Below, piece after piece: positions 791-56,681 of a stretch of 64,000 bases of DNA; positions within the stretch are counted from its first letter, which is position 1, and every line of letters begins with the position of its first letter. A program made the translations under genes and the position numbers. The notes beneath the pieces are model-generated. The model had not been told where the DNA came from and did not search any database. It saw only the letters and a list, made by a program, of their open reading frames with translations. The DNA is from Cyanidioschyzon merolae (taxonomy: Eukaryota). The stretch is taken from NCBI GenBank assembly GCA_000091205.1, contig AP006494.2; one strand, given 5' to 3'.

Positions 791-1381
791 TTACACCCGC
801 GGGGCCATAAACGCATCCGGCATTCGTTCCACGGTGTACTTGTGCTGCGCGATGTACATAATAGGCACACCGGGAATTTTCCGCAACCGTCGCCGCAAAT
901 CCCGATCGCAGGTGGCGACGATGAATACACGATGGGCCATAACCCGCTCAACTATGCAATCATCTGCATAAGTCCCTTTGTGTGTGCACTTGAGGCGCTG
1001 CACCAGCGAAGCGTCTCTGACAATACGCAGTGCTACGCGGTACTTGCGTCCGAGCTTCTCGAGTTCTGCAACAACACAGTCCGTCACACAAGCTTTCGCG
1101 GGGGCAAACAGGCAATCCATTAGACCCTTTTGAAGATCGATTCGGTTCTGAATAGAAAAATTGATGAAGTTTGTGTCGATAAGCACTCGAAAGGGTGGCC
1201 CGAGCGCCGTGTTGTACTGAAAGAACAGCTCTGGAGGCACTGCGCCCAGGCGCTCCTCATCGCGAGGTCGCTGAACAAGTGGTGCCAGCTTTTCTTTAGA
1301 TTTTTCCTTCTGAATAATCCGCTCATCCTTTGGATTCAAAACTCTCGTAAAGCCGCTCTCGAGACGCCGCTTTCTGCCCAT
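791..1381 (-). CDS. FCF1: rRNA-processing PIN-domain protein FCF1/UTP24 homolog
   Basis: ORF 791..1465 (-). The Fcf1 family is matched by [58 protein letters not shown] and a C-terminal YTVERMP. An internal Met at 1381 gives about 196 aa, the normal Fcf1 length. The upstream 28 codons look like spurious read-in. Confidence 0.85.
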
Positions 1382-1630
1382 GGAAGCGAACAGCGGACAC
1401 AGGTCCAAACCAAGGTTCGCTCGCTTGGAGCGCTCACCGGCGCGCTTGCAGCCTGTGGATCGCACATCGCACGCGTGTGTCGAGGCTGTGCATCCTTGTC
1501 GACGTGCGCGAGACCGAGCGGAGCACTTGTATGTCTATCGGTGGCGATTGAGGTGACCGCGAATCGGGTATCTTATGCCCATGTCAGAAGAGAGTCGAAC
1601 GTCTCCACTAGACTATCTCCGCGCAAGCGC

Positions 1631-1733
1631 TAAAGTTTGGGTATCTTCCGATTGACATGAACCGTAGCCCTTGCAGCGCATGCGTGCAAGGGCTACGGTT
1701 CATGTCAATCGGAAGATACCCAAACTTTAGCAC
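1631..1733. repeat. perfect inverted repeat (hairpin/cruciform-capable), 47-nt arms, 9-nt spacer gcgcatgcg
   Basis: Arm 1631-1677 (gctaaagtttgggtatcttccgattgacatgaaccgtagcccttgca) is the exact reverse complement of arm 1687-1733. The spacer 1678-1686 is itself nearly palindromic. The six-frame track shows mirror-image ORFs on both strands (1608..1976 - and 1657..1953 +), as expected for a palindrome. Confidence 0.9.
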
Positions 1734-2112
1734 GTGGATGCCCGATTTCAGGGAAAGCGCTACATCTGTCTCATTCCGATATCGGCGTAGATGGCAACTG
1801 CAATCCCGCATCGAATGGAATCTAGTCATTCGCATCGATGCAGGTGCATCGAGAACGGCATACCGCCTGCGGCATGCGATACATCCGCTGAGGCCGGAAC
1901 GTTGTCCACTGCCCAGGTGGCGCCGATGCCGGCGTGCCGAGCCGTCGCCATGAACGCTCGTCGCGTGCCAACGCAATATTGCGGATTCCAGGTTTGCAGC
2001 TCAGGTGCTGTGAGCCGTGCATCGTTTGCTTGAACAAACAGGTTCGAGGAAACCTGAGCTTGAAAAGAGACTTTTTGTAGAAACTTAGCACCGAGTGATA
2101 CGCAAACTTGAC

Positions 2113-3402
2113 ATGGCTTTCGCAATTTCGATCGGCTTCTCCGGCACCAAGATGCAGCGCAGCTCGGTGGCTAATTCACGGGCGAGCTCGCTGCGAACCC
2201 GGCGCTTGCACGCGTTCGCCGGGTTTCCGCTTGTTGGAGCTCGTGCATCTGAGTTCTCGGGGGCACATCCACTTGGTCGACGGCAAGCGCTGAGGAGCAT
2301 GGGGCAGCGTCATGGAATCCAGGGCCTCCAGTGCCGGAGCGCAGCGATAATCGTGAATCCTCCGTCGGGTGGACACGCCTCCATCGGTCTCTACCTCGCG
2401 CGGCAGCTGTTATCTCTTGATTTAGAAGTGTATCTGCTTGTGGCGGGCCAAGAAGACAAATACCGCTCCAAGCAGCCGAACAGCGCCCTCTTGGGTCTTC
2501 GCGAAGCGGAACCCCACGCAGCGTCTTTCCATATCTCGTTCGGTGACGCCGACGATCCCTCGATACTCATGAATATGGTCCAGACACGCCGCCCATCGGC
2601 GGGACCAATCGCAGCCTTCATAGATAATCGATCGCAGACGTTGGATGAGGCCCTTCTGCTGCATAAATTTGCCATGGGACTCAACGCGGAACGGTATCTC
2701 TACGTGAGCTCCTGCGGCATCTACGAGCCGGGTGACTACGCGCCATTCATCGAGACAGACCAGGTGAGGCAAAGCGCGGGTCAGGCGCAGGTGGAATCAC
2801 GTTTTTTGCGGGACAGTGTGATCCCATTTGCAGCCTTTCGTCCGATGTATATCATTGGCAAACACGCGGCGAAACTTGACTATACAAATTTCTTCCTCGA
2901 CCGAATCACGAGGAAACGACCCATACCTTTACCCGGAAAAGGCAATGCATTTGTCAGTCTGACGCATGCTGAGGATGTTGCCAGCATGCTTGCTTGTGCT
3001 GTACTAGCGCGACCGGACGAGGTGTCTGGCCAAGTATTCAACGCAGTGTCGCCGCGGTATGTGACGCTCAAGGGACTCGCAGAGATGTGTCACCGCGTCG
3101 TTCACGGCGACAAGTCGAAACCGGAGATCATCTATTACGATCCGGTGAAGCTTGGCATTGACCCCAAGGAGGCAACAGGTCTACCGTTCCGGGTTTCGTA
3201 TCCATTTATCGCAGATCCTGGCAAAGCGATGCGTTTGCTCGCTTGGCAGCCGCGTCACGACCGCACGCTGCAAAATGATCTGCAGGAAATGTACGAGGAG
3301 TATCTTGAACTCGGACTGCACGAGCGTCGCGTCGATTTAACCAACGATGATCGAATCGCGCGCAGTGTGGGAGCAGCTGCGAAAGCGGCCGCAGCGAAGT
3401 AA
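2113..3402 (+). CDS. CSP41-like chloroplast stem-loop-binding protein (atypical SDR / NAD-dependent epimerase fold) with an N-terminal presequence of about 70 aa
   Basis: ORF 2095..3402 starts with GTG at 2095; the first ATG is at 2113. A degenerate Rossmann motif IIVNPPSGGHASIGLYLARQLL is present. The C-terminal half is collinear with CSP41a/b: RPMYIIGKHAAKLDYTNFF, RPIPLPGKGNAFVSLTHAEDVASM, YVTLKGLAEMC, PEIIYYDPVKLG, FPFRVSYPFIADPGKAMRLLAWQP, TNDDRI. Confidence 0.8.
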   Translation: MAFAISIGFSGTKMQRSSVANSRASSLRTRRLHAFAGFPLVGARASEFSGAHPLGRRQALRSMGQRHGIQGLQCRSAAIIVNPPSGGHASIGLYLARQLLSLDLEVYLLVAGQEDKYRSKQPNSALLGLREAEPHAASFHISFGDADDPSILMNMVQTRRPSAGPIAAFIDNRSQTLDEALLLHKFAMGLNAERYLYVSSCGIYEPGDYAPFIETDQVRQSAGQAQVESRFLRDSVIPFAAFRPMYIIGKHAAKLDYTNFFLDRITRKRPIPLPGKGNAFVSLTHAEDVASMLACAVLARPDEVSGQVFNAVSPRYVTLKGLAEMCHRVVHGDKSKPEIIYYDPVKLGIDPKEATGLPFRVSYPFIADPGKAMRLLAWQPRHDRTLQNDLQEMYEEYLELGLHERRVDLTNDDRIARSVGAAAKAAAAK

Positions 3403-14946: not shown

Positions 14947-15482
14947 TTGTGCTGCAGAAAGGAGGGCATGCATACAAGTTTATGCTTTGCGCTGAGTCGA
15001 TGCAAGGTTGCTGGTTAGGCGCGTCGTGCCAGCATCCAGATACATTTGTTATCGAGAGCAGATGCTCTGGCGCAAGCCATGCACTGAAACGAAATCGTTG
15101 CCAAACCGTGATCTCCCGTGTGCGTCACCTGTTGTGGTGACACCGTCGGAAATGAGTGCAATCGCGTGAAACTCGTTTCTCTTTCAAGAACGGAATCGCG
15201 TGCCGTTTACGCAGCGCCCACGCGCCTCGCATGCAGCAGTTTCGTCGTCTCCAAAGCGATGGTGAGTCATGCATCACGCTTCACGCGGAATGCAACACAG
15301 CCTGAGCATAACTTGTACCCCGCTGTGGTGTGTCGTGCGCGAAACTGCCTTCACTCACTGACGTCGCGACGAGCAGTCCGTGGTGTGCGTACACGGATCA
15401 TGAGCAAGCCCCAGCTCAGAGTAAAATGGAACAGGTCCACTGAGCTAACTCGTGTATAGACGCTCAAGTTTGTGTCTATTTT

Positions 15483-16112
15483 CACTGCCATGAACACCAG
15501 CATCTGGAAACTATGTCCGCGACTGCTTCCTGTTCCTGTATTGCGCATCACCGGCTTTGACGACGCCGGTCGCGCCAGTCCGCCCGCCTCTATTCTCAAC
15601 AGTCGAAGGATGCTGAAAACAGCGTCCGCGTTCCGATTTCGCCGTTCACCGCTGCTTCCGGCACATCGCATACACACACAAATACGGAGATCTACGCTAG
15701 CCGTGTCATTTCCATCTTGGTTGCATACAGCCTCGGTACGCGCTTCACAGCGCCGACACCGCGCTGTGGTTACCTGCACTCATTCGTTCTCTGCACGTCG
15801 ACCTGCGTCGAAGACCACCCTGTGGCGCGTGAACGCTCGCTTCATCGCTCGGCACACGCCGCTCACGAGTGTAGAACGCTCAGCTCGATACACACCTCGA
15901 TAGCAGCGCCCAGAGCTGCACACACTACAAGTACAGGCCTCCTCTGGGCGATCTGCTACGTGCGTACTCTATCCGCTACAGGTGCAAGCGCACGGTGTTC
16001 GATTCGATAGACAATTCGTGTACTGCGATATTGTCCATGATCAAAGAGGTGATCGGAAATCCAGTCCAGACTGGAGAACAAGTCGACACGTTTCGATCGG
16101 TCTATAGTCCTT
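15483..16112. repeat. dispersed repeat family A, copy 1 (about 630 bp)
   Basis: About 98.6% identical to 27456..28085 in the same orientation (offset 11,973 bp). Identity starts at cactgccatgaacaccagcatctgg and ends at gatcggtctatagtcctt. No TIRs or TSDs seen. No recognisable coding content. Confidence 0.85.
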
Positions 16113-22299: not shown

Positions 22300-22575
22300 C
22301 TCCGACCCCCGGTCTTCGGGACCGTCAGTCGTCGAAGCCGCCCCCGTCTTTTTCATGCAATGCTCCTGCATGGCTTTGATAGTGATGCAAGCTTGAAGCT
22401 CAGTGCGACGTCGAATGCCCCGACACGTCTGCTTTGCGCGAACCCCCGGTCTGCGGGAGCGGCAGTCGTCGAAGCCGCCCCCGTCTTTTTCATGCAATGC
22501 TCCTGCATGGCGTTGATAGTGATGCAAGCTTGAAGCTCAGTGCGACGTCGAATGCCCCGACACATCTACTTTGCA
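22300..22575. repeat. tandem duplication, 2 x ~138 bp (~90% identical)
   Basis: cccccggtctKcggg...gtcgtcgaagccgcccccgtctttttcatgcaatgctcctgcatggcKttgatagtgatgcaagcttgaagctcagtgcgacgtcgaatgccccgacac occurs twice head-to-tail. The ORF track shows a duplicated peptide, SRRSRPRLFHAMLLHG[FV]DSDASLKLSATSNAPT. Confidence 0.8.
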
Positions 22576-23783
22576 CGATCGAAAGTGCTGCGCTTCCCCG
22601 CAGCCGCTGCGCAGCGATGCGAAGCGGCACGTTGCATGCCTGGGTGCCGCCCGCGAGCCCCTTTCGGACCCATGGATCATTGGGCAGACTTGGATGCCCC
22701 CACATGCCGGATGCTTTCCGTCAGAACCCCGTACTCATACTGCAAGCGCGCCCGTGAGCCCGAACCTCGTGCAGCAGACGCTGTCGCCCATGTGCACCTA
22801 TTGGTGATGTGTCCGCGACAACAGCTAGGCTCGATGTCACCGCGGATGCAAGCTCGATGCTCGTCCGAATGCATTTCTGTTCCTGTGCGTATAGGGCTGG
22901 ATCACGTTCCGAATACATGGACGGGTGCCACAGACTGGAAAGCGTACTCTATTCAGGGCGATCTGTGCGCTATATTTTGAGTATGACGCACATCAGTCCC
23001 GGAGTCGTATGAAAAGCTCTAATGCGTTCGAAAACAGGCGGAAAAGGCTGATGGAAATCCGCCCGCGGACGCGATGCGCTCGGGCATTCGCCACAGAACA
23101 ATGCTTTCGCAACGGCGCCAACGTTTCACTGAGCACGACTCGAACGCAGAGCGTATATCGTAAAATTTCTTTGTCGCAAGCGCTGGCTTCGAGTAACGGA
23201 CCCTTGTCGACATCGAATACTCAGCTTTACGCTTCACGCTCTGTGCGATAGCAACTGAATGAATGTCCACCATTCGAAAACAAGCATGTCCAAACAGGCG
23301 TTTCCCGCACTCGTACATGAATGTGCAGCAACACAACAATGCAATCAGGTTCATGGAAGATATTCGCATCTACGCAAAAAGAATCATGTCTCGATCTGCA
23401 CCGCTGATCAGGTGCGACGATCGATACAAAGTGCGATCCGAGTACCCGGAATGCGTTCCGCGAGCCGGCGACCTTTGCAGCAATCCGGAAAAGCAACGAT
23501 CCTTGTCGGTCTGATGCTACGATCGATACAGAACGCGATTCGTGTATCAGAATCGCCATCTATGCATATGGCCCTGCGTGCGATCGAAAAACAAAGCAAC
23601 GATCAGCTTACGAGTCGCAGCCGGTATCACCTGAAACTCTGAGGCGCCGCCAGAGCTTGGCCACAGAACGTCGATTGCCCAATGCTGGAGATGCCGTCGA
23701 TGCTCGATCCCCAGAGGGCCGCACGCAACCGCTTTCAGCCAAGTCGTTCGACGAGCTCTGCCACAAGCAATCCGCCTCATGCG

Positions 23784-26264: not shown

Positions 26265-27455
26265 ATTGATCGACCTAGGCACTTACAAAGAGGCACAACC
26301 TGTCCGGTTTTAGCCAGGGTCTAGACCCCCCCAGCGCGAGTTCCTATTGTGCTCGAAGTGCGCTCCACAGCAGATATGCCACAAGCAGGTACGCTTTCTG
26401 AATACGGTCGCTGCGATGCCCTGCCGCGCGCTGCCCGCATGGATCACCTTTAGGAAACATCCGGATTCGCAGGTAGAGGCCTTGGGAAGCGTACCAGAAT
26501 ATGTAGCTTACTTTCCGATCTCGCTTTCATTTCATTTTGAATGTAGAATTGCAAGTACAGATTGCGGCCTTGATCTTTCCTAGTCTGCTGACATGACGTG
26601 GCCAAGGACGCATTAGAGAGAAGCTGGCAGAGGAAAATACAGAAAAGGCCTGGCGATCCAGGCTCGTGCAATATACTGATCTCTTGGTCGCACCGTACCG
26701 ACTCCACGAGCGCCGTACTCATCGAAGAAAGCGCTGCAGTCCCCAATGGGTACATTTCGGGTTGGTACAGGCCAGATGTTTCAGTGCTTCCGCAATCTTT
26801 CCACCCGCTGCATGCAATTGATATGGCAGAGACGCAGCTTCCGCTTCGATGTCGTGCGATTCCAGCATCCCGGAATAGACCTATACGAATGCAACGTTTA
26901 CGCATCAGACAAGGTTCCGTCAATGTATATTGAATACTTGCAACGACCAGAAATGCGTTCAACCTGCCATTGCACTGAGAAAGATCTGTGGAAACACAGC
27001 ATCCCCATTTTTTGACTGGATGCGGCAGCGGTCGTGCCTACAAGTTGGCGGCAGAAATCTCCTGAAACGTCTCCATGTAGCCAATGATGCGCCCATGGCT
27101 GGTTCTCCACGAACATCCGCAGTTCCCTGCACTCTGCTCATCATAGACTGCCATTCGGCCGAGTGACCCTTACAGAACCCATCTCGAAGCACCGCAGCTG
27201 CTCATGTAAAATAGGGAGTCTCATAGGCTGCCCGCTGTTTTACTGCATTTCCAAGACGACTCCCTAAACTGTGTAGCTCGTCGCCGTATCACTCCTGGTG
27301 CAGCATTGTCGCCAACGCGTGCACATTTTCTGGCACGAACTGCGTTGGCGTCGCTCCAGCGCTTACTGGAGATTCCGTTGCACCCATGTCCGACTAGAAA
27401 GAGACCGTTCCGAGCAGTATTCTCTGATGTAGACTCTAGACTTCAATTTTCTACT

Positions 27456-28085
27456 CACTGCCATGAACACCAGCATCTGGAAACTATGTCCGCGACTGCT
27501 TCCTGTTCCTGTATTGCGCATCACCGGCTTTGACGACGCCGGTCGCGCCAGTCCGCCCGCCTCTATTCTCAACAGTCGAAGGATGCTGAAAACAGCGTCC
27601 GCGCTCCGATTTCGCCGTTCACCGCTGCTTCCGGCACATCGCATACACACACAAATACGGAGATCTACGCTAGCCGTGTCATTTCCAGCTTGGTTGCATA
27701 CAGCCTCGGTACGCGCTTCACAGCGCCGACACCGCGCTGTGGTTCCCTGCACTCATTCGTTCTCTGCACGTCGACCTGCGTCGAAGACCACCCTGTGGCG
27801 CGTGAACGCTCGCTTCGTCGCTCGGCACACGCCGTTCACGAGTGTAGAATGCTCAGCTCGATACACACCTCGATATCAGCGCCCAGAGCTGCACACACTA
27901 CAAGTACAGGCCTCCTCTGGGCGATCTGCTACGTGCGTACTCTATCCGCTACAGGTGCAAGCGCACGGTGTTCGATTCGATAGACAATTCGTGTACTGCG
28001 ATATTGTCCATGATCAAAGAGGTGATCGGAAATCCAGTCCAGACTGGAGAACAAGTCGACACGTCTTGATCGGTCTATAGTCCTT
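27456..28085. repeat. dispersed repeat family A, copy 2
   Basis: See copy 1. This copy carries an uninterrupted 205-codon ORF (27463..28080). Copy 1 has a stop in that ORF. The ORF is Arg-rich and not protein-like. Confidence 0.85.
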
Positions 28086-31507: not shown

Positions 31508-33433
31508 CTAGCTCGAGACCTCCGCCGAGTCGCCACCGCTGAGCCAGCGCGTGTGCCACCGCCGCCCCGGATCGTCCAGACGCTCGTAGCCGTGCGAGCC
31601 GAAGCAATCCCGCTGGGCCTGAACCAGCTGGCTTGAGCGCAGCACCGCCTGTCGATACGTGTCGTAGTACGAAAGGCTCGCGGTCAGCGCCGGCGCCGGC
31701 ACACCCAGCGATGCCGCCAGCCCGACAACACGCCTCCAGCTCTCGTGGCGACGTCCAATCTCCGCAGCCAGGTCAGCGTCCAGCAGCAGATTCGGCAGGC
31801 TGGGGTCTCGTCGAAAAGCGCCCTCGATCCGCTCAAGCAGCTGTGCCCGAATAATGCAGCCGCCCTTCCAGATGCGCGCAAGCTCCCCGAGATCCAGCGA
31901 CCAGCCCTGCTCGCCGCTCGCTCGCTGCAGCAGACTGAGACCCTGCGCGTAGCTACAGAGCTTGCTGCAGAAGAGTGCGTCCTCAATAGCAGCGATCAAC
32001 GCTCGCTCCGCCGATGCATCCGAACGCGACGTCGACGCCGACGCTCGTACAGAGCCAGACGCTAGGGCGGCGACACGCTCGGGAGCTGTGTCCGGTCCAG
32101 TTTCAGCTACACCGCCAGCGGCTCCGGGTGAGGCACCGGCGGCCGCCAACTCGGAGGCGTGCCCCGTACCCGAGAGCCGCTCGGGTCCGCGGAGCACCCG
32201 CGACGCACGCTCGCGCTCGTCCTTCCGCGCTGAGAGGAAGCGCCCGTCGAGCGCGGCAGCGATGGTCGGCACCGCCACGCCCCGCCGCAGTGCCTCCGTC
32301 ATCGTCCACAGGCCAGTGCCCTTGCTCTCACTCCGGTCGAGGATTTGGTCTACGAGCGCTGGCGCCGACGCTGCCGACGAAGACGTGTCAGGCACGCGTA
32401 GAATGCGCGCGGTAATCTCCACGAGGAAGCTTTGCAGGGCGCCCGCGTTCCACGAGGCAAATACTTCCGCAGCCGCCATCGCATCCAAGCCAACGGCACC
32501 CCGAAGCAGGTCGTATGCCTCGCCGATCAGCTGCATATCGCCGTACTCGATCCCGTTGTGCACCATCTTCACATAGTTCCCCGAGCCGCCCGGCCCAATG
32601 TAGGTAACGCACGGCCCAGAGCCGGGCACCTGCGCCGCAACCTGCTCCAGCAGCGGCGCAAGCTGCTGGTACGCCTCCCGTGAACCGCCCGGCATCAGGG
32701 AAGGCCCGTAGCGCGCACCCTCCTCGCCACCGCTTACGCCCATGCCTACGTACAGGAGGCCGCGTGCCGCGACAGACGCAGCACGTCGCTCCGTATTCTC
32801 GTACCACTCGTTGCCGCCGTCCACGATGATGTCGCCCGGCTCCAGAACCTCAGCCAGCGCCTCGACGGTTGCGTCGACTGCGCTCCCCGCCTTCACCAGC
32901 AGGAATACCCGCCGCGGACGCTTCAGCGAAACCACAAACGACCGCAGGTCCGCAAAGCCGGTAACGCTCCCGCTGGCTGTCGTGTCATCTGCCGCGAGCT
33001 CCCGCTGCGCCCGCTCAACAGTCTCCGCCGTCCGCGCATACGTTCGATTGTACACAGAGACTCGCCAGCCGTGCGACGCTAGGTTCAGTGCAAAGTTCTG
33101 ACCCATGACCGCAAGGCCAATGACACCCGCGTCCGATATTGCGCGACCTGCAGGATGTGACGACGCGCTTTCCCGGACAGCACTCGACGGAGACGAGCCC
33201 TCCGCCGCAGACATGACGGCAGCACCACATGCTTGTGCGCGGCGGCCTCGGAGCAGGCACCAGCGAGCGCTTCGGACCAAGCTCAGGCTCCATGTCGGGT
33301 ACGTACGCCTGGGTGTCCAGGAGTGCGCACGCGGAGGCGCCCAGCGTCCGAAGCGCACCGCAGCGACAGGTGCGGCGGCCCAGCACAGCGCACCGCCACT
33401 GGGACTCCGGCGAGTGCCCGCTGTCGTCGCCAT
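31508..33433 (-). CDS. 6-phosphogluconate dehydrogenase (decarboxylating), with an N-terminal presequence and an Ala/Ser-rich insertion
   Basis: The ORF-track start at 33487 is GTG; ATG is at 33433. Motifs: IGLAVMGQNFALNLASHG, GGNEWYENT, GMGVSGGEEGARYGPSLMPGG, GSGNYVKMVHNGIEYGDMQLIGEAY, GTGLWT, WKGGCIIRA, DCFGSHGYERLD. Confidence 0.9.
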   Translation of the reverse strand: MATTAGTRRSPSGGALCWAAAPVAAVRFGRWAPPRAHSWTPRRTYPTWSLSLVRSARWCLLRGRRAQACGAAVMSAAEGSSPSSAVRESASSHPAGRAISDAGVIGLAVMGQNFALNLASHGWRVSVYNRTYARTAETVERAQRELAADDTTASGSVTGFADLRSFVVSLKRPRRVFLLVKAGSAVDATVEALAEVLEPGDIIVDGGNEWYENTERRAASVAARGLLYVGMGVSGGEEGARYGPSLMPGGSREAYQQLAPLLEQVAAQVPGSGPCVTYIGPGGSGNYVKMVHNGIEYGDMQLIGEAYDLLRGAVGLDAMAAAEVFASWNAGALQSFLVEITARILRVPDTSSSAASAPALVDQILDRSESKGTGLWTMTEALRRGVAVPTIAAALDGRFLSARKDERERASRVLRGPERLSGTGHASELAAAGASPGAAGGVAETGPDTAPERVAALASGSVRASASTSRSDASAERALIAAIEDALFCSKLCSYAQGLSLLQRASGEQGWSLDLGELARIWKGGCIIRAQLLERIEGAFRRDPSLPNLLLDADLAAEIGRRHESWRRVVGLAASLGVPAPALTASLSYYDTYRQAVLRSSQLVQAQRDCFGSHGYERLDDPGRRWHTRWLSGGDSAEVSS

Positions 33434-33777
33434 CCTTGAGGCGATCCACAGGTGGTTTGCGTGACCGAGGGCGGCCGGCCTGTTCACCGGGTGCGCCTCC
33501 TCGGTCTGCCGCGCTCTAGACGGGACAGCGCGCAGCGACTGGCCGTCTGGTGCTGCTTCCGGGACTCCTCAGCTGCCGATCCTGTGCCCCGGCGCGAGCA
33601 CTCGGCGACTTGACGTCTGGTGCTCGCTCAAGTCTCTCACGGTCACTACGACAACACGCACGCTCAAAAGCTGAGCACAGCGGAAAACAAAACCGATCCG
33701 CGATGCACGGGGGTGCTGCAGATCGATGCAGTCCGCGTCACGAGTTCTCGCAGTAGCACGAATACCACCGACAATAA

Positions 33778-33798
33778 CAGCAGCAGCAGCAGCAGCAA
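33778..33798. repeat. (CAG)n trinucleotide microsatellite
   Basis: Direct read: cagcagcagcagcagcagcag. Confidence 0.8.
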
Positions 33799-34876
33799 GC
33801 AACGCAACGTACTCGGTCCACAAACAGCCGCAGTCAGCGACGAATGAGCGGCTCGCTCAGTAGCTCGCAACTGCAGCTCCAGCACGAGTACGGAACGGAT
33901 CGCAGACAGCCGCCACGAGGCCGCAGCGCTACGCACAGCGCGCGACGCACCGTCAAGCGCTATCCTGCGCTGACGGCCGCCGCAGCAACGCAGGCGGATC
34001 GAATGCGCACGGGTATATATATGAATATGGAACCTTAATCATCACTTGCGTTCAAACCATAGCTGGAAACACCGCGTCCCATCTCGAATCGCGAAGTTAA
34101 GCAGCATTGGGCTCTCTGAGTACTGTGATGAGGGATCGCACGGGAAACGGGAGTGACGCAAGTTCGCTTTTGCCACCACGTCGCGCTGACCTGTTCTAAA
34201 GCGCGCATCAGCAGACGCGAGCCGGGTAGTCTGGCGGGGAAGCACTGTGAGGCCGGCTTGCTCCGGAATACACTTGCAACCGGTGGTCCAGATCGACGAC
34301 GATAACGAGTGGGTAACTGCGGAGGCCTGGTTGCACAGAGCGATCTTGCAGCGCTACGAACCGCAACACCTGCCGATATTCTGGAGGAGGTGCGATCGCC
34401 CCCGCACGACGAACCCCGTAGCACCCAGAGGGAGTACGCACCCGCGCTACACCATGAATGCTAAAAAGGGCGGCAGGGCAGGGGCTGTCGCCCCGAACGC
34501 GTATTGCAGACAAACTAGCGCGTCACGTTCATGTGCGTCGCGTTCTAGTCCGTCGCACAGCAACAGGAGCACTGGAAAAGATCATAAGCCAGCATGCTAC
34601 CGTGCAGCGCACTGTACCGCCTTCGCTTTACGTCATACGGAACTAGACAGGAAAGTTGCCACCACGCCAGCCACGACTCCATCGATGCGAGCATCGCGCG
34701 TGCGCACGCGTGCCCGTCGCATCGACCCCTAAGCCGCCGTGTACCGAACACAACTGCCTCCGTTCGTCGCGAATGCGCAGCAACCTTCCCTCTGACACAG
34801 AAAAACACATCGTGTCCATCACAGACGCCGGTGACAAGGCCGCGTATAGCACCAACGAACTCGCCACGAATCCGCA

Positions 34877-43664: not shown

Positions 43665-45194
43665 GGATTCGCTCCAACAACCATTACAGAGCAGACCGTG
43701 TGCCCTAGTGCACGCAAAGTTCCGTCACCCGAACCGCGTCTATGCCAGCGAAACGCATCTAAAGCCCTAGCCCTCAGCGACCTGACACGGCTTCCTTGCT
43801 GACTGCACCTCTACGAAGCGAGCAGTACTCAGTGGTGCGAAGCGCAGTCGACGAGTCAGAGAAGGGACAGCAATGCTGGAACTGGATCCTATTTGAAGCC
43901 ACGGTGAATACAACCGTTCTGTAAGCGTTGTTGCGCGCACGCGTTCTAGTCTTTCAACTCGGTTCTGTGACACCCCAGGGAGATGGAACCGAATGCTATT
44001 CCGCATTGTATGGCAGGAGATCGAAACCACGATGCACAATGCTGTATAGGTCGAAGACGAATTGCCTGTAGCATCTATTCGTTACTGAACAGTGCAAGGG
44101 GGACTACATTCCTTCTTCAGGTCAGTCATACAACAGCACTCAGATGGACGAGGAATACTGAAAGGGAGAAGTGCATGCGCTTCGTACCAAAACCGTTGTT
44201 CTCAAAGAGTGCTTATGGTCAGTGGTATAAAACAAACCATTGAACACCTGACGGAAAGCAAAATCAACGATAGCAGCCACCTCGGATGTCTCTGTCTCTC
44301 AACAGCTTGTTCGTGTAGTCCTGCAAACACTGGAATAACGTCGCAAAAAAAGTCCTAGTTCGATCAAGATCAACTTTCACTGAAATCGCGCCTACAGCAA
44401 CCCTGGAACGTTGTGATCGGTATGAAGCAGAGCAACGTCGGTTTATTTTAGTCGATTAGACTTTCCTCGGGTGAAATGGTTAGAGCGTATACGGGTATTC
44501 GCGAAGCAGATATCCCATTCTATATACGATTGACCTCGAAGAGAACGAGGATTTCATCTGTTCTAACTGTGGTGGATTCATTCGCCTGCCTCGATTTCGC
44601 TCGTAACGAAGGCTCATACAACAGTACCAAACACTCTGTCGAATCGTTGAAGACTTGCCCCTGTCATCTAGTGACGTCCTTCAATTAGGCAACATGGTAT
44701 ATGGCCTCTAGCCTTGGGTTCGGACTTTTGCCGTTTCTGTTGAGGCCGAGCTGCTTTCCATTCGTCCGTACGCTCCGAGGTTCAACTCCATCGAAAGAGC
44801 GTTTTCTATTGTGAAGCGTAATAATCGCTACATCCTGCGAATCGCTGAAGCGTTTCGCAAATTGTGACAACAAGGCATATGTCATCTTTCTTCCGCAAGT
44901 CCTTTTTCCTCCGGGAACCTCCGCACCTCTTGGCATAAACGAGAGCATTCATTTTCAAAAGTAAAAACTCAAGGAAAATGTATAGAAATGTAAGCCGGGG
45001 ATCCTGGCTGTCTGGGGTGCCTGACTGCTGGAAACAAAAGGAACCCATTTCCATGCTCACAGGAACAGGAGAGAACCACGAAAGCACGAGCAGGAGACCA
45101 GACCTCAAAACTTGCCCAAAAGGGGAGACTACGACGAGCCTGTAGTGAACGTCTGCCTTCCTGGTCATACAAAACATCCGTACAAACAAAGGTA

Positions 45195-46322
45195 GCCTGT
45201 TACGCGAGGAACGCTCGCTCCGCTTCCCGCGCCTTGACACATCTCGTCACGCAACGATTCGTACGAGCTGTGGACGAAGGGATGCCAGCTGCTCATGTTT
45301 CTCTTCAGCGTCTCGATCAAACCTGCACGCGACAGCACAAGTGATGCTCGTTGCAGCAGATGCGATGAGCCCTGGTCGTGGAACCTGAGGGTTGCACAGT
45401 CGCCTCCCAGCGTCTGCTGACGAGTGGACGCGTTGGCTAGTTGCTGCGTCGCATCGCTGCTTCAGGAATCCATACGTCTGCAACGCACATGCCAAAACGT
45501 ATCGAGCCTAGCCCAGCAATCGTGTGCAGATCGCTGCGGGGCGCTTCATGAGGCGCACCCTGCCGCCGATGTCCTCGTTGCACCCGGGCCTCACTGGCCC
45601 GAAACAATGCGGAAAGCTAAAAGGGACGCTACACTCTAGATCGTAAAGAAGCGTCGAAATAGCGCTCGCGGATGATCTCGTGGCAGGTGCACACGATACC
45701 GCGCTGCTGTCGCCTCTGACTTTGACTCGACGGAGGCTAGAAGCGAGCAGTCGCCAACTTGCTCGATAAGCTGGAGAAGCGAACGACCGAGGAGTCGCGT
45801 CGATTGTTGCTTGCCTACGCAAACGGACGTGCTGGTGCGTCCGCGTGTCGCACACCAGCGCCCTCGACGGGAGCGTCCAGCGAGTACACAGGGATCGCAG
45901 CTGGGCGATTTCCCTGCAAGCGTTCGCGACGATACGGAAGCATCACGAGCGGGTGTGCGCAGCGATGCTCGCCGAGAAGCCAATCGTGAAACAGAGCCAG
46001 CTGCACGAGATGGTGCACGGTACGCTGGGCGGGCGCCAGACTGCGAGGGAATCAAAGGCGGGCCTCCCTGTACAGTGCGAGTCGACGAGCAACAACGCAG
46101 ACAGGCGCTCGCTGCACCGAGACCCGAACGCCTCGATCAGCATATGGACGAGTCACGTGCTTCCTGCGCGTCCAGCGGCGTTGTGTGGAACCATTCTTTG
46201 AGGTGATCGTTCCGTACACAGTCTAGACATTGTGCTGAAACGCTCAAGTCTATCGATGAGGAGAAATCGATTGCCAACAGAGAGAGCACGGAATGACCCA
46301 TCGGGGGCAGGGCGCTGGTACG
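45195..46322. repeat. dispersed repeat family B, copy 1 (about 1.13 kb)
   Basis: About 99% identical to 55029..56157 in the same orientation (offset 9,834 bp). At least six ORF-track peptides are duplicated verbatim (for example 45247..45495 = 55082..55330). Starts at gcctgttacgcgaggaacgctcgc and ends at ggcgctggtacgg. No recognisable protein domain. Confidence 0.85.
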
Positions 46323-46694
46323 GTACGCGTCGACCATGCATCAAACCTGGACCAACATGGACATATACATACCTGGAACAATATCCTACCCTATCCGTGA
46401 ACGATCATCGTGTCCCAGTATTCGACATTCATGCATATACCGTAAAACTGCACGCTTGGATAGTGCCTTTGGCCTTCAATCCATGCAAGCATCGGAACGG
46501 CATCCAGCGAGAGCTCAAGATGGCGCCTCACGTGCAAAGCACGAAGGACTGCAATGCGGACAGCAGGCTGGGCGCTGTCCACCGCGCGTTCCTGCCAGCT
46601 GCGCAAGCGCCGCCATCGGCTCGAGCTGCAATCTCCACACACGTGCGCGTACCGTAGCGCTGGAAAATGTTCGGTCAGTGTTCTGGGCGCCGCT

Positions 46695-55028: not shown

Positions 55029-56157
55029 AGCCTGTTACGCGAGGAACGCTCGCTCCGCTTCCCGTGCCCTGACACATCTCGTCACGCAACGATTCGTACG
55101 AGCTGTGGACGCAGGGATGCCAGCTGTTCATGTTTCTCTTCAGCGTCTCGATCAAACCTGCACGCGACAGCACAAGTGATGCTCGTTGCAGCAGATGCGA
55201 TGAGCCCTGGTCGTGGAACCTGAGGGTTGCACAGTCGCCTCCCAGCGTCTGCTGACGAGTGGACGCGTTGGCTAGTTGCTGCGTCGCATCGCTGCTTCAG
55301 GAATCCATACGTCTGCAACGCACATGCCAAAACGTATCGAGCCTAGCCCAGCAATCGTGTGCAGATCGCTGCGGGGCGCTTCATGAGGCGCACCCTGCCG
55401 CCGATGTCCTCGTTGCACCCGGGCCTCACTGGCCCGAAACAATGCGGAAAGCTAAAAGGGACGCTACACTCTAGATCGTAAAGAAGCGTCGAAATAGCGC
55501 TCGCGGATGATCTCGTGGCAGGTGCACACGATACCGCGCTGCTGTCGCCTCTGACTTTGACTCGACGGAGGCTAGAAGCGAGCAGTCGCCAACTTGCTCG
55601 ATAAGCTGGAGAAGCGATTGACCGAGGAGTCGCGTCGATTGGTGCTTGCCTACGCAAACGGACGTGCTGGTGCGTCCGCGTGTCGCACACCAGCGCCCTC
55701 GACGGGAGCGTCCAGCGAGTACACAGGGATCGCAGCTGGGCGATTTCCCTGCACGCGTTCGCGACGATACGGAAGCATCACGAGCGGGTGTGCGCAGCGA
55801 TGCTCGCCGAGAAGCCAATCGTGAAACAGAGCCAGCTGCACGAGATGGTGCACGGTACGCTGGGCGGGCGCCAGACTGCGAGGGAATCAAAGGCGGGCCT
55901 CCCTGTACAGTGCGAGTCGACGAGCAACAACGCAGGCAGGCGCTCGCTGCACCGAGACCCGAACGCCTCGATCAGCATATGGACGAGTCACGTGCTTCCT
56001 GCGCGTCCAGCGGCGATGTGTGGAACCATTCTTTGAGGTGATCGTTCCGTACACAGTCTAGACATTGTGCTGAAACGCTCAAGTCTATCGATGAGGAGAA
56101 ATCGATTGCCAACAGAGAGAGCACGGAATGACCCATCGGGAGCAGGGCGCTGGTACG
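55029..56157. repeat. dispersed repeat family B, copy 2
   Basis: See copy 1. About 10 mismatches over about 1.13 kb. Confidence 0.85.
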
Positions 56158-56681
56158 GGCCGAGTCAGCAATCCACCAAGTCTAAAGCATCTTATATACA
56201 CTCCAGGACCCATTCTTTTAGGGCATTGCCGAACGATAATTATCTTGCTCGATTATGGAACCACACCGACTATACTCGAGGCACCCGCGGTGCATCATTG
56301 TGCTCTACCACTAGGTGCCGCGTTGATTGCACATGCTGCATCGCGATGCTCGTGATTCCATGAACGAGGCCCCGCTCCAAAGCGACCTTCGCAGCGTCGC
56401 CTCAGAGAGCCGCTACCGCGCGCTAAAGCATGCCGACACCTATCGTTCAACGCGGGCTCCCTGACCACCACCATGTCAACGTTCCGTCCAAGAACACTCG
56501 TACGCTGAACAAGTCTCGGGCATTGGCGCACGATCTATGTCCTTCTTGTACTGGTTTGTACAGATAGCGGACGTTGATTGCTTGCGCACTGACGCGTTTG
56601 CGTCACCGAGATTCCACTATCATCGTTTTTAGTCTACGATGCGGTGTTCTCTGGCTTCACGGGTGTTGCAGGTCTAGGGCT

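Follow-up and report, generated by a model that had tools for sequence, protein, structure and literature searches.

The palindrome in the Fcf1/CSP41 spacer

A perfect palindrome of 103 bp lying between two divergently transcribed genes raises the question of what such a structure is: a functional element, a transposon, a trace of genome instability or an error of the reference assembly. The window (the whole stretch of DNA analysed, 64,000 nucleotides in length) comes from the nuclear genome of Cyanidioschyzon merolae 10D, and the proteins encoded on the two sides of the palindrome match BAM80672.1 and BAM80673.1 exactly. The first of these, an Fcf1/Utp24 PIN-domain protein (PF04900 and PF18477), is encoded on the minus strand at 791-1381; the palindrome is located 248 nt upstream of its ATG at 1381. 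The second, a CSP41-like epimerase-fold protein with a weak match to PF01370, is encoded on the plus strand at 2113-3402 and is annotated as 'similar to mRNA-binding protein'; the distance from its ATG at 2113 to the palindrome is 382 nt. The divergent gene context proposed in the first-pass annotation was thus borne out, both by the PF04900 match and by the protein matches.

The left arm, on the Fcf1 side (1629-1675), and the right arm, on the CSP41 side (1685-1731), are 47 nt long each and are exact reverse complements of one another. They are separated by the 9-nt spacer GCGCATGCG (1676-1684), which would constitute the loop of the hairpin. The total length, the perfect arms and the spacer were as originally described, but the coordinates had been shifted by +2; the segments 1631-1677 and 1687-1733 are complementary at only 8 of 47 positions. 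When imperfect pairing is allowed the structure reaches out to 1624-1736, with arms of 52 nt that are 96% complementary. As the chance expectation for such repeats is ~7e-23 per 64 kb, and as 100 shuffles of the sequence produced none, the statement that the palindrome is not due to chance holds. Folding, suggested earlier as a check, yielded a very stable predicted hairpin, with -62.5 kcal/mol as DNA (z = -17.2 versus shuffled controls) and -98.4 kcal/mol as RNA (z = -17.3). The octamer CGCATGCG is present inside the spacer as claimed, and is not enriched in the window (4 matches versus 3.99 expected). The palindrome is the sole long inverted repeat within the 64-kb window, and the pattern CTTGCA-N9-TGCAAG at its centre has no second occurrence there. 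A 9-mer of the left arm (GGGTATCTT, 1640-1648) recurs 74 nt away, at 1566-1574.

The longer inverted repeat of wild relatives

Approximately 20 metagenome contigs of this locus, ~99.2% identical to the window, were gathered by exact-protein look-ups and by a 22-mer scan. One of them, L007, spans both genes and the whole spacer, and carries an additional 757 bp between the same two arms. The spacer of this contig contains an inverted repeat of 860 bp, with 386-nt arms at 1894-2279 and 2368-2753 and a loop of 88 nt; the arms are complementary at 96% of positions overall and at 98.3% within their outer 361 nt, the inner 25 nt being degenerate. The same loop and inner arms were found in contigs from three other metagenomes (L018, L020 and L021), and inner-arm sequence adjoining one outer arm was found in L009-L011, L017 and L019. 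All related contigs that reach past either arm into the site carry the longer repeat.

Both arms of the 10D palindrome have their place in this long form. The left arm corresponds to the outermost part of the arm that lies nearer to Fcf1 in the 860-bp repeat, and its 47 nt are identical or nearly so in L007, L009-L011, L013 and L018; the right arm is the outer end of the distal, CSP41-side arm, identical in L017, L019, L020 and L021 and represented by a 2-nt variant in L007. In the orientation of the window, the first half of the long form reads arm, CTTGCA, CGCATGCGC, TGCAAG, inner arm and loop, and the second half reads inner arm, CTTGCA, GCGCATGCG, TGCAAG and arm. The spacer seen in 10D is therefore the copy that belongs to the CSP41-side arm of the long repeat.

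Several positions distinguish the two arms of the long form, and not the same ones in every strain, which indicates that the long repeat is real DNA and not a hairpin made by an assembler. Many of the contigs end inside an arm, as is expected of short-read assemblers at a genuine inverted repeat. A palindromic misassembly of the arms, raised as a concern in the first-pass annotation, was rejected, both arms being present in independent contigs from several metagenomes. The arms thus recur in many independent assemblies, whereas the short junction between them is found in the reference only. L008 was left out as evidence because it is a chimeric contig; in its positions 1-382 the upstream region of Fcf1 (from window position ~1475) is joined to an AT-rich polyadenylated transcript of another organism. 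L012 was considered as an 'empty site' and dismissed. It follows the window at 99% identity as far as ~1572 and then departs from it; the alternative 125 nt (L012 1-125) match nothing and never rejoin the other flank. Structural variation, a strongly diverged allele and chimerism at the contig end are all conceivable.

The centre of the long repeat is not oriented in the same way in all contigs. A central asymmetric segment of ~138 nt, made up of the 88-nt loop and ~25 degenerate nt on each side, is inverted in L007 (loop at 2280-2367) relative to L018 (232-319), L020 (246-333) and L021 (63-150), and the SNPs of the arms are also distributed differently between strains. One possible explanation for the opposite orientation is recombination between the arms, by flip-flop inversion and gene conversion; the other is an ambiguity of short-read assembly, which is possible because the loop is flanked by ~120 nt of perfectly identical inverted sequence. 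The shuffling of arm variants between strains is what arm-to-arm gene conversion would give. It seems to us a long shot that the 860-bp repeat is kept in nature as an invertible element within a bidirectional promoter. Should both isomers really occur side by side, a promoter-proximal segment between Fcf1 and CSP41 would be flipped whenever the arms recombined, and this in a eukaryote that has hardly any repeats and lacks RNAi; 10D would then be a natural 'locked' deletion mutant.

The Fcf1/CSP41 gene pair is kept in Cyanidiococcus yangmingshanensis (L022) and in a second relative (L023). The syntenic spacers of these two contain no long inverted repeat and have no detectable homology to the arms. 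As the repeat is absent from the Cyanidiococcus spacer and present in 10D and in its ~99% identical relatives, it is young and specific to the C. merolae lineage. The palindrome had initially been called young, maintained or an artefact; the first of these options is supported by the comparison with Cyanidiococcus, and the last applies, if at all, to the short form only.

Origin of the short form

In the long form of the wild relatives, 757 bp separate the two CTTGCA hexamers; in L007 this inner segment occupies 1950-2706. When a deletion of these 757 bp, from CTTGCA to CTTGCA, was simulated in L007, the product matched the window at 1560-1799 with 4 SNPs in 240 nt, and all four mismatches are SNPs private to L007. 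The junction in 10D lies at a 6-bp microhomology, a CTTGCA scar at 1670-1675. The long form was thus directly observed at the orthologous site, as were the exact junction and its microhomology. Since a 757-bp deletion between the hexamers reproduces the 10D sequence, the 10D palindrome is best read as a stub that has lost its centre. From these sequence comparisons, we consider it probable (at roughly 0.8) that the 103-bp palindrome is what a deletion of the centre has left of an inverted duplication of ~860 bp, young and single-copy, in the Fcf1/CSP41 spacer. Its relation to an 860-bp repeat is invisible from the sequence of the window alone.

A mechanism can be proposed from the anatomy of the long repeat. 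Each of its arms holds a small local quasi-palindrome, CTTGCA-N9-TGCAAG, of 21 nt. The segment is almost identical to its reverse complement, so that its counterpart in the other arm would act as a near-direct, if imperfect, repeat. Upon folding of the long repeat into a hairpin, the two copies of the quasi-palindrome would come to face each other in the stem. The 757 bp could then be removed by slipped-strand mispairing or by microhomology-mediated joining of the CTTGCA hexamers, and the remainder would consist of the outer 47 nt of each arm and a single 9-nt spacer. As most strains already have identical arms over the outer 47 nt, the palindrome formed in this way would necessarily be perfect. 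Slippage as the mechanism, and a deletion instead of an insertion as the change, are both inferred; other routes of break repair would leave the same scar, which weighs against slippage as the route.

Palindrome 'revision' by deletions of this type has been described in eukaryotic cells. In E. coli plasmids, long inverted repeats are deleted through mispairing of short direct repeats at the stem of the hairpin (Sinden et al. 1991 and Dasgupta et al. 1987, as cited in PMC7999016), and the arrangement of the two quasi-palindromes in the stem would be the classical geometry for slippage across a hairpin, in line with the same source. As in the plasmid deletions by slipped mispairing, a long inverted repeat has given way in 10D to a much shorter and more compact product, and the junction at a 6-bp microhomology, symmetric in both arms, is likewise a shared feature. 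In contrast, the 10D stub is still a perfect palindrome with 47-nt arms, while the revision products of E. coli and of eukaryotes are asymmetric and stabilised. A further difference is that the known deletions were directly observed, whereas the event at the 10D locus is deduced from a comparison of natural strains and may have taken place in the alga or in a cloning host.

As for the long form, interstitial inverted duplications can arise by fold-back priming or template switching in the course of replication or break repair, with snap-back at short inverted repeats (PMC7999016). The 860-bp repeat shares with such duplications its near-identical inverted arms around a short asymmetric centre; it also resembles them in being single-copy and in having neither a transposase nor a target-site duplication. 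The known cases of such duplications are mostly large, palindromic duplications of chromosome sequence, in yeast deficient in repair or in cancer cells. The long form differs from these in being small (860 bp) and apparently stable in wild populations.

The direction of the change had to be judged on structural grounds. The wild contigs are 99.65% identical to each other and 99.27% identical to 10D, and as they are closer to each other than to 10D, phylogeny alone gives no direction; the spacers of the sister genus hold no sequence homologous to the repeat. The opposite course of events, in which the short palindrome is ancestral and a 757-bp palindromic element of the foldback type was inserted in the centre of the wild-strain copy, is left open by the phylogeny, and the flanking hexamer (CTTGCA, or TGCAAG on the other strand) can be read as a 6-bp target-site duplication. 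Such an insert, however, must have ended in 15 nt (CTTGCAGCGCATGCG) that mirror the centre of its target, so that the inverted repeat would continue uninterrupted from the outer arms into the insert, a coincidence of which the deletion has no need. No second copy of the 757-bp segment, or of the ORF within it, turned up in the sequences searched, and C. merolae has very few transposons, its eight class II elements resembling bacterial transposases (PMC1955436), which also argues against an insertion. We therefore regard an insertion as very improbable, and the long form as presumably ancestral; this order rests on structural parsimony, the inverted repeat running unbroken across the junction, and not on an outgroup.

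A more difficult question is where the centre was lost. It may be that living 10D carries the full 860 bp and that the 757-bp centre disappeared in the making of the reference, either through loss in E. coli shotgun or BAC subclones or because a polymerase jumped over the hairpin during PCR or Sanger sequencing. We treat this possibility as a part of the deletion reading and give it a substantial, if minority, share. E. coli clones provided the 10D reference, and the remaining gaps were filled with PCR products that were amplified from BACs and then subcloned (PMC1955436). The long form is expected to be stable in the alga and unstable in clones, it is present in every independent assembly that reaches the site, and the short junction is present in none; exact-product look-ups in other assemblies, for ORFs that cross the short junction and for a 10D-specific upstream ORF, returned no match. 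Conversely, the independent contigs all come from strains other than 10D, which is ~0.7% diverged from the wild strains, leaving ample time for a natural deletion; moreover, a Sanger assembly represents many independent clones, all of which would presumably have needed the same deletion. Our estimate is that a real deletion and an artefact are about equally likely, with a slight preference for the former owing to the number of clones involved and to the 0.7% divergence from the strains with the long form. The chance that the deletion occurred in the 10D lineage is accordingly put at about one half. If the loss is an artefact, the 103-bp palindrome is absent from the living alga, and its description as the stub of a longer repeat stands all the same.

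These considerations have some practical weight. For users of the reference, the locus is structurally unlike that of all sampled wild relatives and may be wrong in an assembly described as '100% complete'; since 10D is a model organism, those who use the promoter of Fcf1 or of CSP41, or who design constructs for homologous recombination at this place, should check the locus. The palindrome is a real feature that reflects ordinary genome instability, and it adds one more case to a type of structural change that is already known. On the deletion reading, it would provide a clean natural case of a long inverted repeat that collapsed via microhomology to a shorter perfect palindrome, in a nearly repeat-free genome.

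Transposon and functional readings, and other features of the window

The first-pass annotation had proposed a foldback or MITE-like insertion made of terminal inverted repeats only. Like Stowaway MITEs and foldback elements, the palindrome is intergenic and consists of terminal inverted repeats, perfect ones in this case, with little between them, and the TA at both of its ends (gcgc-TA-AAGTTT...AAACTT-TA-gcac) could be a Stowaway-type duplication. TA, however, is itself palindromic, and the repeat runs 2 nt beyond it (GC/GC), so that it is inseparable from the arms; the extensions of the arms consist of the palindromic dinucleotides TA and GC only, and a direct-repeat target-site duplication is absent. 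A search for further copies of the arm, as members of a possible MITE family, returned this locus alone: two matches in the 64-kb window, which are the two arms themselves, and five contigs in the 22-mer scan of the metagenome contigs, all of this locus. The palindrome also differs from Stowaway MITEs and foldback elements in that no relative has an empty site and in that the orthologous site holds a longer version of the repeat. With a single locus and no demonstrable duplication, the transposon reading is largely refuted, and we grant it hardly any probability.

A functional hairpin, acting either as a precursor of small or hairpin RNA or as a cruciform cis-element common to the two divergent promoters, had also been put forward. 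The very stable fold, the position in a bidirectional promoter region and the identity of the outer arms in most strains would be in keeping with such a role. The RNAi machinery, including Argonaute and Dicer, is nevertheless absent from C. merolae (PMC11376382), which makes a small-RNA precursor unlikely, and no Rfam family was found for the short or the long form. A search of Rfam with window positions 1380-2115 gave nothing credible (two weak matches, E = 3.7 and 7.7), and one with the long form (L007 1800-2900) gave no matches at all. The miRNA/siRNA precursor proposed earlier is thus unsupported, and nothing supports a shared regulatory cruciform: inverted repeats are absent from the syntenic spacer in the sister genus, the octamer of the spacer shows no enrichment, and 88% of the element is missing from 10D, no effect of this loss being apparent. 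A dedicated role for the hairpin is therefore very improbable, and the stub that the deletion would have left probably has no function of its own. In the scanning of genomes, a striking perfect palindrome need not mean a functional element or a transposon.

The long repeat was also examined as protein-coding sequence. In L007 an ORF of 153 aa lies at 2264-2725 on the minus strand, with a convergent mirror ORF in the other arm; in both arms its ATG lies within the 47-nt arm (ATGAACCGTAGCCC), and the frame has no stop codon across the whole inner arm as far as the loop. No Pfam family matches this ORF, the only long one inside the arm, and a search for relatives yielded just two near-identical clusters (96-98%), one of which matches L020 by length. 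Its composition, rich in Cys, Trp and Arg, looks non-coding. A coding role for the long repeat was consequently rejected, and the ORF, as judged from its sequence, is probably not coding.

C. merolae is known for its disrupted tRNA genes (PMC3728597), and a segment close to the palindrome (1585-1620, minus strand) has a tRNA-like appearance. It reads GCGGAGA-TA-GTCT-AGTGG-AGAC-G-TTCGA-CT and resembles the first ~33 nt of a tRNA, with an acceptor strand, U8-A9 and a D arm with a 5-nt loop; alternatively, it can be viewed as adjacent A-box (TAGTCTAGTGG) and B-box (GTTCGACTC) motifs. The sequence is kept in all related contigs. ARAGORN found no tRNA genes in the window, and under relaxed settings only poor models with 'introns' of 83-206 nt; Rfam gave no tRNA match at E<=10 in 1380-2115. 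With nothing credible from either program and no 3' half found by eye, a tRNA or permuted tRNA was dismissed, and the segment may be a decayed tRNA fragment or a product of chance.

Elsewhere in the window, a 5S rRNA gene was found at 34044-34164 on the plus strand (94 bits), adjoining the most GC-rich part (66.8%, 32001-34000). The far end of L018, which should lie ~11 kb beyond the start of the window, matches 34314-34541 at 97%, pointing to a repeated segment near the 5S gene. Two dispersed direct repeats were also observed, one of 1151 bp (45194-46344 and 55029-56179, 98.3%) and one of 631 bp (15482-16112 and 27455-28085, 98.6%), together with a tandem duplication of a 137-bp unit at 22305-22578. 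These direct and tandem repeats are of note in a genome that has been described as almost repeat-free.
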